64,000 bases of DNA from the NCBI RefSeq assembly GCF_030013205.1, contig NZ_CP122648.1; one strand, given 5' to 3'. Shown piece after piece: positions 2,983-3,323 of the stretch (within the stretch, counting starts at the first letter, position 1; each line of letters begins with the position of its first letter). This DNA comes from Escherichia coli. GTDB taxonomy: Bacteria > Pseudomonadota > Gammaproteobacteria > Enterobacterales > Enterobacteriaceae. The position numbers and the translations under genes are program-made. The notes below the pieces were generated by a model. It had not been told where the DNA came from, searched no databases, and saw only the letters and a program-made list of their open reading frames with translations.

Positions 2983-3323
2983 TGGCCTTTAATGCGTAAC
3001 ACTATAGCCCCTTGTATTTTTCTTTGAAAGTTATCCTTCAATAATATCGACAATTCGAAAAGAAAATCATGGGCCAAAAATCGCAACGAAAATAGCTTAA
3101 TGCATTGAAAAATAAATGAATTAATTCATATTTATGCAGAGGTGTTATTGGTTTCACTTGCAAAGTGAAAAACAAATTAAGTTATTTTTTGTAAGTTATT
3201 TTGATGATATTCGACATGCATCACGCTTTTTTCCGCTTTTGCTGTGCTAGTTTGCTTTCAAAATGAAAGTGAAGATTCTCTTTCTTCATTTTGTAAGGCG
3301 AACGACAAATAACAGGAGCTGCG
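2983..3323. promoter_or_regulatory. divergent promoter/operator region between the regulator-kinase operon and the aldolase-transporter operon
   Basis: 341 bp, AT-rich and non-coding, flanked by divergent start codons. Contains perfect palindromes ATGAATTAATTCAT (3116-3129), TTTCACTT-gca-AAGTGAAA (3152-3170) and CTTTCA-aaa-TGAAAG (3255-3269); AAGTGAA recurs. Confidence 0.6.

Follow-up and report, generated by a model that had tools for sequence, protein, structure and literature searches.

DeoR-family regulators usually respond to sugar phosphates, and several of the repressors that control sugar operons through multiple operators, namely DeoR (deoO1/O2/OE), GalR, LacI and GlpR with its tandem operators, form DNA loops. 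The closest described counterpart of the locus considered here is the D-tagatose (tag) islet of Escherichia coli Nissle 1917 (EcN; PMC9720028). A second paper from the same group (Park et al. 2025), which is the source of the gene name tagR, used dRNA-seq to map transcription in the region and found only two starts in 8.5 kb (PMC12226905). In that work, plasmid-borne or excess tagR silences a reporter carrying the tagR-tagY spacer, while tagatose induces and glucose represses spacer-driven expression (PMC12226905). Induction is reported to exceed 1000-fold, and autoregulation at the tagR promoter, Preg, to amount to about 2-fold. The authors describe their own model as a working hypothesis and assume D-tagatose itself to be the inducer (PMC12226905). 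Our literature search on TagR operators returned nothing beyond these two papers of one group, and no EMSA or footprint of TagR was found in the literature searched.

Here, we analyze the corresponding region of an E. coli window, by which we mean the whole 64,000-nucleotide (64-kb) stretch of DNA. The 341-bp spacer at 2983-3323 is the tagR-tagY intergenic region of the tag islet, and its GC content of 32.6% compares with 51% for the window as a whole. The islet is carried by 1422 of 5426 complete E. coli genomes, and an identical stretch is found between yhdT and accC in E. coli chromosomes. The locus is that of the EcN tagR-tagY region: the spacer has 341 bp in both, the promoters are the same, identity to the B2-type alleles is 95-96%, and tagO2 and a CRP-like site are identical (PMC12226905). 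The window allele is rarer than that of EcN, and is common to 19 genomes at 99% identity or more, those listed being mainly swine ETEC.

Materials and Methods

The comparative sample comprised 34 loci encoding relatives of TagR, with one genome per species, and 33 of these were used for site spacing. Fifteen loci carry orthologs with 52-92% identity, including E. coli E69, Superficieibacter, two Enterobacter, Trabulsiella, Serratia, K. spallanzanii, Sodalis, an Erwinia MAG, Izhakiella, Tatumella and Budvicia, and the other 19 encode a paralogous regulator with about 40% identity. The sample was extended by seven more E. coli alleles. Published transcription starts were mapped onto the window through the 341-bp spacer that it shares with the EcN-type alleles without indels.

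Two matrices were used to score candidate operators. Matrix 1 is symmetrised, spans 21 bp and draws only on nine tagO1 orthologs from outside E. coli (consensus TTACTTTCAAATTGAAAGTAA). Matrix 2 is derived from paralog loci only and contains 14 near-identical sites, which makes it too narrow to judge weak sites. Palindrome frequencies were compared with those in 5000 dinucleotide-preserving shuffles of the spacer.

Results

The spacer separates two divergent transcription units. To its left, tagR (2152-2982, minus strand) encodes a DeoR/GlpR-family repressor of 276 aa and is co-transcribed with tagK, a tagatose-kinase-like gene downstream of it that lies within an ORF at 1185-2195. TagR matches the Pfam domains HTH_DeoR at residues 16-67 (E 7e-14) and DeoRC at residues 88-219 (E 1e-15), thus combining an N-terminal DeoR-type HTH with a C-terminal DeoRC sensor domain, and RefSeq names the gene product a DeoR/GlpR regulator. 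Its top NCBIfam match is AgaR, at a sub-threshold score of 105.6 against a 260-bit cut-off, and judged by its domain content TagR is a member of the DeoR family and not AgaR. A search by sequence or profile for a solved structure of a TagR relative found none. To the right, the tagYABCDE operon (3324-9681, plus strand), identified from NCBIfam, the RefSeq annotation of the identical locus and published functional work (PMC9720028), contains a tagatose-bisphosphate-type class II aldolase, a ribose-type ABC transporter, a tagatose kinase and an aldose-1-epimerase-family gene. The Pfam and NCBIfam assignments agree with the initial annotation, which had described a DeoR-family regulator diverging from an aldolase gene. 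Gene families, RefSeq annotation and both published studies (PMC9720028, PMC12226905) likewise place tagK-tagR, divergent from tagYABCDE, at the yhdT/accC insertion site of the tag islet.

The same annotation had drawn attention to three perfect palindromes in the spacer, and an exhaustive palindrome scan recovers each of them: palindrome 1, ATGAATTAATTCAT, at 3116-3129 (7-bp arms, no loop); palindrome 2, TTTCACTT-gca-AAGTGAAA, at 3152-3170 (8-bp arms); and palindrome 3, CTTTCA-aaa-TGAAAG, at 3255-3269 (6-bp arms). The recurring half-site AAGTGAA/TTCACTT is also present as described, at 3153-3159, 3163-3169 and 3267-3273. Shuffled spacers contain a mean of 1.05 palindromes per sequence when arms must be 6 bp or longer and loops no longer than 4 bp, and three or more arise with P = 0.094; when arms of at least 7 are required the mean is 0.33, with P = 0.043 for two or more. 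The excess over chance is weak and marginal for a spacer this rich in AT. Given only this marginal excess over the shuffles, we rejected the palindrome count as evidence of function, so that conservation had to decide.

Among 8-mers, CTTTCAAA/TTTGAAAG shows the strongest over-representation in ten genera, and the operators of distant genera are clean 21-bp palindromes, for example AATCTTTCAAATTGAAAGTTA in Budvicia. The putative TagR motif is a roughly 21-bp imperfect palindrome, TTACTTTCAA-W-TTGAAAGTAA, with the core TTTCA-N3-TGAAA. Alignment of the spacers highlights a series of conserved blocks, comprising the Preg -10, the CTTTGAAAGTTA box on the -35, a TTTTGAAA box, a YAAYNNATTGAAA box, the palindrome 2 region, TTTTGTAAGTTA, the right half of the CRP-like site (TCACGCTTTT), tagO1 and tagO2. 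Matrix 1 reaches 8 bits or more at five positions in the 64 kb, four of which fall within the spacer: 3252 (tagO1, 25.4 bits), 3148 (palindrome 2 region, 14.6 bits), 3154 (a second register in the same region, 10.8 bits) and 3178 (TAAGTTATTTTTTGTAAGTTA, the O(-73) site, 8.4 bits). The fifth, at 8392 (11.7 bits), is inside tagD. Three upstream matches of at least 8 bits were seen in 0 of 3000 shuffles of the spacer upstream of tagO1. Apart from tagO1, the sites in E. coli are weak, with O(-73) at 8.4 bits, O_R at 4.3 bits and tagO2 at -2.1 bits.

The same motif recurs in the loci of the paralogous regulator, whose divergent operon encodes an aldolase, a 1-PFK-family kinase and a fructose-type PTS EIIBC, this being the PTS-type tagatose route. 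In these 8.8-kb loci, matches lie almost only in the regulator-proximal spacer and score up to 24.6 bits. The operator shared by TagR and its paralog is accounted for by their HTH regions, which are about 80% identical, against about 40-42% overall. Distances between adjacent sites across the 33 loci are strongly repetitive, with 73/74 bp and 28-32 bp each occurring 24 times, and the layout runs from O2 over 28-32 bp to O1, with O(-73) a further 73/74 bp away, in some lineages O(-104) 30-32 bp beyond it, and a site at the regulator promoter. Tatumella has this layout upstream of tagR next to a gene that is not tagY, an arrangement that links the motif with the regulator and not with the aldolase.

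Palindrome 3 occupies the O1 position in this arrangement. The published Ptag start, 64 nt upstream of the tagY ATG (PMC12226905), corresponds to window position 3260 on the plus strand, and the -10 hexamer TAGTTT (3248-3253) ends 7 bp upstream of it (PMC12226905). The main operator, tagO1 (TTGCTTTCAAAATGAAAGTGA, 3252-3272), has palindrome 3 as its core and overlaps both the -10 and +1, so that TagR binding here would exclude RNA polymerase. The tagO1 predicted for EcN, CTTTCAAAATGAAAGTAAA (PMC12226905), corresponds to 3255-3273, where 18 of 19 positions match; the one substitution gives GTGAA in the window and GTAAA in EcN. With the matrix built from other genera only, tagO1 is the best site in the window at 25.4 bits, as it also is with the paralog-only matrix (24.6 bits), and it is the sole occurrence of TTTCA-N3-TGAAA in 64 kb. 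The site is invariant in 8 E. coli alleles, and palindrome 3 is kept out to Budvicia as well as in the paralogous PTS-type tagatose loci, standing at O1 in all loci. Lying at the centre of the published predicted operator, on the mapped start and in the best matrix match, palindrome 3 bears out its initial designation as a candidate operator of the regulator: it is the core of the predicted primary TagR operator.

For palindrome 2, the evidence supports an overlapping operator-like site and not the palindrome's own axis of symmetry. Palindrome 2 is contained in an auxiliary operator-like region, O(-104), at 3148-3174, which is recognized by its matrix scores and recurrent position. This region holds two overlapping imperfect registers, TTTCA-CTT-GCAAA in the 21-mer at 3148-3168 (TTGGTTTCACTTGCAAAGTGA, 14.6 bits) and TTGCA-AAG-TGAAA in the 21-mer at 3154-3174 (10.8 bits), which rank second and fourth in the 64 kb. 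As the top upstream score, the 3148 register has a shuffle P of 0.001, or 0.013 without the Serratia training site; with the paralog-only matrix it reaches only 5.4 bits. Its position at 3148-3168 is 104 bp upstream of tagO1 and 30 bp beyond O(-73). Sites at -104/-98 are found in four orthologs (E. coli, E69, Superficieibacter with 19.3 bits, and K. spallanzanii) and a -105 site in four paralog loci, the position being missing from other loci; across the 33 loci, six lineages have a site 104-105 bp from O1. The symmetry register of palindrome 2 itself was rejected, with a score of -46; the signal arises in registers lying -3 and +3 bp from it, and the operator register has its centre at 3158, 3 bp away from that of the palindrome at 3161. 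In E. coli E69 the symmetry of palindrome 2 is lost (TTTCGTTTATAAAGTAAAA) without compensating changes, and the 8-bp arms appear to be a by-product of the two overlapping registers. The suggestion that palindrome 2 is an operator is therefore upheld in part, as regards a significant operator-like site at a recurrent position, but not for the palindrome's own register. The segment containing palindromes 1 and 2 is wholly missing in Trabulsiella and Enterobacter BIGb0383, which have spacers of 221-244 bp, and O(-104) is thus dispensable.

Palindrome 1 had likewise been proposed as an operator of the adjacent regulator, a candidate that we rejected: its scores are -7 bits with matrix 1 and -33 bits with matrix 2, and it is missing from E69 and from every other genus, with no counterpart beyond typical E. 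coli. Its centre varies between TA, TT and AT among E. coli while the arms persist, at a divergence too low to be informative. Palindrome 1 is probably incidental AT-rich spacer sequence outside the TagR machinery. The spacing of its half-sites also misfits the ArgR and Fur box consensus sequences. Adjoining it is a conserved box, TAATGCATTGAAA (YAAYNNATTGAAA), at 3098-3110, which is kept in E. coli, E69, Superficieibacter, Enterobacter ENT03 and K. spallanzanii. The reverse complement of this box matches 12 of 13 positions of the IHF core, WATCAANNNNTTR, a resemblance only. In addition, the promoter scan returned a promoter-like match over palindrome 1, consisting of TTGAAA (3105-3110), a 16-bp spacer and CATATT (3127-3132).

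The palindromes had been expected to lie within the divergent promoters, and for palindromes 1 and 2 this expectation fails, since the published starts leave both of them outside either core promoter, at about -138 and -99 from the Ptag start and at -130 and -168 from the Preg start, respectively. Neither palindrome is mentioned in the literature found on the locus.

The remaining elements of the spacer lie closer to the promoters. Downstream of tagO1, the predicted tagO2 (CTTACAAAATGAAGAAAGA, minus strand, 3279-3297; PMC12226905) lies in the 5' UTR at the 28-32 bp spacing and matches the published sequence at 19 of 19 positions. Its segment TCTTC(A/G)TTTTGTAAG is conserved in orthologs, and a site at +28 to +32 is found in many loci, at +28 to +30 in several orthologs. 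Upstream of tagO1, the operator-like site O(-73) (3178-3198) is centred at -72 from the Ptag start and abuts the CRP-like site. In leave-one-out scans, a site 73/74 bp upstream of O1 with at least 5 bits is present in 10 of 11 ortholog spacers, Enterobacter BIGb0383 being the exception, and also in most paralog loci; it scores 19.8 bits in Budvicia and 16.3 in Serratia.

The CRP-like site, TTCGA-N6-TCACG at 3211-3226, is predicted in PMC12226905 and is centred at -41.5 from the published Ptag start, the class II position. In E. coli it matches 7 of the 10 core positions of TGTGA-N6-TCACA, and in Budvicia it is near consensus (TGAGA-N6-TCACA, 9 of 10). The TCAC half is kept in 9 of 9 aligned genera, reading TCACG in all but Budvicia, where it is TCACA. 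Glucose catabolite repression of Ptag has been shown (PMC12226905). The initial annotation correctly refrained from assigning the TTCAC..GTGAA arrangement to CRP. It had missed the CRP-like site at 3211-3226, along with tagO2 and the operators at -73 (conserved) and at the tagR promoter.

On the tagR side, the dRNA-seq start of Preg lies 11 nt upstream of the tagR start codon (PMC12226905), which places it at 2993 on the minus strand. The Preg promoter (3001-3028, minus strand) has the -10 hexamer TATAGT (3001-3006) and the -35 hexamer TTCAAA (3023-3028), both found by our promoter scan and identical to those in PMC12226905, and CACTATAG and CTTTGAAAGTTA are conserved in orthologs. The published promoter hexamers, tagO1, tagO2 and the CRP-like site are all present at the published distances from the start codons. 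An operator-like site, O_R (3013-3033), overlies the Preg -35; its right half (CTTTGAAAGTTA) is good, its left half degenerate. Weak as it is in E. coli, this position reaches 20.5 bits in Serratia, 17.0 in Sodalis and 11-18 across paralog loci, and a leave-one-out scan finds a regulator-promoter site in most ortholog spacers. From this pattern of sequence conservation we infer that O_R may mediate autoregulation of tagRK.

Discussion

We consider it quite probable that the spacer is a divergent control region in which multiple TagR operators are combined with a predicted CRP site. The view that its palindromes are operators of the DeoR-family regulator accordingly needs qualification, applying fully to palindrome 3, in part and in a shifted register to palindrome 2, and not to palindrome 1. 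The sites found enable us to propose a model for the control of the islet. In this model, TagR on tagO1 would cover the Ptag -10 and +1 and block RNA polymerase. With tagO2 about 29 bp downstream of tagO1, O(-73) 73/74 bp, or about seven helical turns, upstream and, in E. coli, the weak O(-104) another 30 bp away, the class II CRP site (-41.5) would sit between an upstream and a downstream operator pair, and activation from it would be withheld by glucose. TagR oligomers would occupy the 30-bp-spaced operator pairs (about three helical turns) cooperatively, resulting in tight repression, and could possibly bridge the two pairs across the CRP/RNAP site. The half-degenerate operator on the Preg -35 would provide mild autoregulation, and a tagatose-derived inducer would release TagR. 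TagR binding at each individual site, cooperativity or looping between sites and the identity of the effector are elements that we infer. Bridging, specifically, is speculative, as a 74-bp loop would be energetically costly.

The effector may differ from that assumed in the published model and be a tagatose phosphate, the usual kind of ligand in the DeoR family, rather than free tagatose. The sugar-phosphate effector suggested in the initial annotation was a reasonable proposal. Because the ABC-type and PTS-type uptake routes share both operator and layout, the inducer could be tagatose 1,6-bisphosphate, an intermediate common to both, or a tagatose phosphate. A broader proposal, possible in our judgement although somewhat short of likely, is that in Enterobacterales the ABC-type TagR and the PTS-type paralog use a common, rigid layout of four to five operators around a class II CRP site, in which the repressor would clamp or loop the CRP/RNAP region, the palindrome 2 region would form the outermost clamp in E. 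coli, and a phosphorylated inducer might be shared.

A simpler reading of the upstream half of the spacer is that palindromes 1 and 2 are chance features of AT-rich DNA and that only tagO1 and tagO2 matter. The palindrome count lies close to that of the shuffles (P = 0.09 and 0.04), palindrome 1 is unconserved beyond typical E. coli, the symmetry of palindrome 2 breaks down in E69, the entire palindrome 1/2 segment is missing from two genera, and both palindromes are located about 100-140 bp upstream of the Ptag start. However, this reading does not explain why the palindrome 2 region matches the operator matrix (shuffle P 0.001-0.013), nor why its position, 30-32 bp beyond the -73 operator, recurs in independent lineages, and we regard it as rather unlikely. 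Another role for this half of the spacer would be architectural, with palindrome 1 and the box at 3098-3110 binding IHF, Fis or H-NS and so bending the DNA between the promoters. The retention of YAAYNNATTGAAA in five taxa, the uniformly AT-rich flanks of the box in all five and the 12 of 13 positions shared by its reverse complement with the IHF core are consistent with such a role. The sequence of palindrome 1 itself, though, is unconserved, and TTGAAA is also an operator half-site, meaning that the box could be a stray TagR half-site; an architectural function is, in our view, improbable.

The promoter-like match over palindrome 1 raises the further prospect of a second rightward promoter, used in conditions other than growth on tagatose. 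It agrees with consensus at 9 of 12 positions in the promoter scan and includes the conserved TTGAAA box, but 1.2 such matches are expected by chance, inspection of the alignment reveals no conserved -10-like hexamer at the right distance in orthologs, and dRNA-seq detected only the two starts in 8.5 kb (PMC12226905). We rejected the candidate at 3105-3132 as a consensus match only, unconserved and unsupported by the published dRNA-seq, and a promoter here seems very improbable. The inverted repeats might also function in the RNA by forming hairpins in the leader of tagY, given that the right half of tagO1 can pair with tagO2 in a 10-bp stem within the 64-nt 5' UTR. Against this, the fold energy of the 5' UTR is no better than that of shuffles (z = -0.21), palindromes 1 and 2 are untranscribed according to the mapped starts, the Ptag start falls inside palindrome 3, and a search of the spacer for a structured RNA or riboswitch gave no credible Rfam match, making a leader hairpin scarcely credible. 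The preferred reading is still a set of TagR operators around a predicted CRP site, with tagO1 as the main one.

The best-supported part of this picture, the tagO1 control region, is already known and published in EcN. Our in silico analysis adds the -73 operator, the link between palindrome 2 and a -104 operator, the Preg operator and an architecture common to the PTS-type loci. The spacer is already in use as a tagatose-inducible switch in the probiotic E. coli Nissle 1917, and its true operators consequently matter for engineering. Our results suggest that the published minimal picture of tagO1, tagO2 and CRP omits the predicted -73, the weaker -104 and the tagR-promoter operators, and trimming or mutating these extra sites could alter how tight, cooperative and leaky the switch is. 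Biologically, this is an ordinary sugar operon controlled by a DeoR repressor and CRP, and current understanding is not overturned.

The published EcN account is silent on the palindromicity of the operator and on palindromes 1 and 2, and it covers neither the -73 and Preg operators nor truncated spacers or looping (PMC12226905). The PTS-type loci of Klebsiella, Citrobacter, Enterobacter and relatives resemble the tag islet in having a divergent DeoR regulator and a TagK-like kinase, and they share its operator motif, the 31-32 and 73 bp spacing and sometimes the -105 site. They differ in that uptake is by a PTS, whereas the tag islet encodes an ABC transporter.

The aga system of E. coli K-12, whose AgaR and aga regulon control regions were reportedly described by Ray and Larson in 2004 (ref. 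36 of PMC12226905), is a likeness of another kind. Like TagR, AgaR is a repressor of the DeoR family, and several operators flank a CRP site at its divergent promoters, but it serves a different sugar and pathway. The AgaR consensus contains MMTTTCR, resembling the TagR half-site ACTTTCA; its TTTC-type repeats run in direct orientation, in contrast to the inverted repeat of the TagR operator. The layout proposed for TagR also resembles that of the classic loop-forming repressors, with an operator at the promoter and auxiliary operators at integral helical turns around a CRP site. Looping is established for those classic systems and putative for TagR, and the 73/74-bp and roughly 30-bp spacings are specific to the TagR family.

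The arrangement of operator-like sites around O1, in which spacings such as 73/74 bp and 28-32 bp are fixed, is retained in four loci where tagR lacks a neighboring tagY, namely those of Klebsiella spallanzanii (L010), an Erwinia MAG (L014), Izhakiella (L012) and Tatumella (L015), despite the first operon gene being a binding-protein gene or an unrelated gene. K. spallanzanii carries both locus types, ABC-type (L010) and PTS-type (L028).

Some 31 bp away from the predicted Preg operator there is another operator-like site (window 3044-3064; positions 73-93 of the E. coli E69 locus, L002). 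In E69 this site is a good match to the operator matrix (TTATCTACATTTTGAAAACAA, 12.9 bits), and its TTTTGAAA box is kept in six taxa; the window allele is degraded (ATTCGAAAAG, -2.7 bits). At the predicted -73 operator, AAGTTATTTT is directly repeated with a 14-bp period (window 3173-3200; copies at 3180-3189 and 3194-3203), the two copies being the two halves of this degenerate operator, and Trabulsiella has a likewise 14-bp-spaced TAAGTTA repeat. Beyond the spacer, the sole operator-matrix match of at least 8 bits in the 64-kb window is GCAGTTTCATGTTGAGAGCTA, inside tagD (8392-8412; 11.7 bits, or 7.4 bits under the matrix built from paralogous PTS-type loci), which could be a chance match or a putative internal TagR site.

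The second tagatose-kinase-like gene, tagK (1185-2195), directly follows the regulator gene, as do its counterparts in almost every locus of the ortholog and paralog sets (L002-L035), including PTS-type loci, whose sugar arrives already phosphorylated. Such close linkage to the regulator gene suggests that tagK takes part in forming or eliminating the inducer. PMC12226905 describes the function of tagK as unexplored.

Strain K_EC180 (L001) is 100% identical to the window over 2100-4300. In this strain the annotation treats tagC and tagD as pseudogenes with frameshifts (L001 13566-15537), whereas the corresponding window ORFs (6665-8638) are intact, at 329 and 320 aa. It appears that either some strains of the swine ETEC type are losing a functional islet through decay or the K_EC180 assembly contains errors.

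Halfway from Preg to Ptag, and adjoining palindrome 1 (3116-3129), lies a box, TAATGCATTGAAA (YAAYNNATTGAAA; 3098-3110), that is conserved across five taxa having long spacers. The IHF core consensus is WATCAANNNNTTR, and the reverse complement of the box resembles it, with 12 of the 13 positions in agreement.
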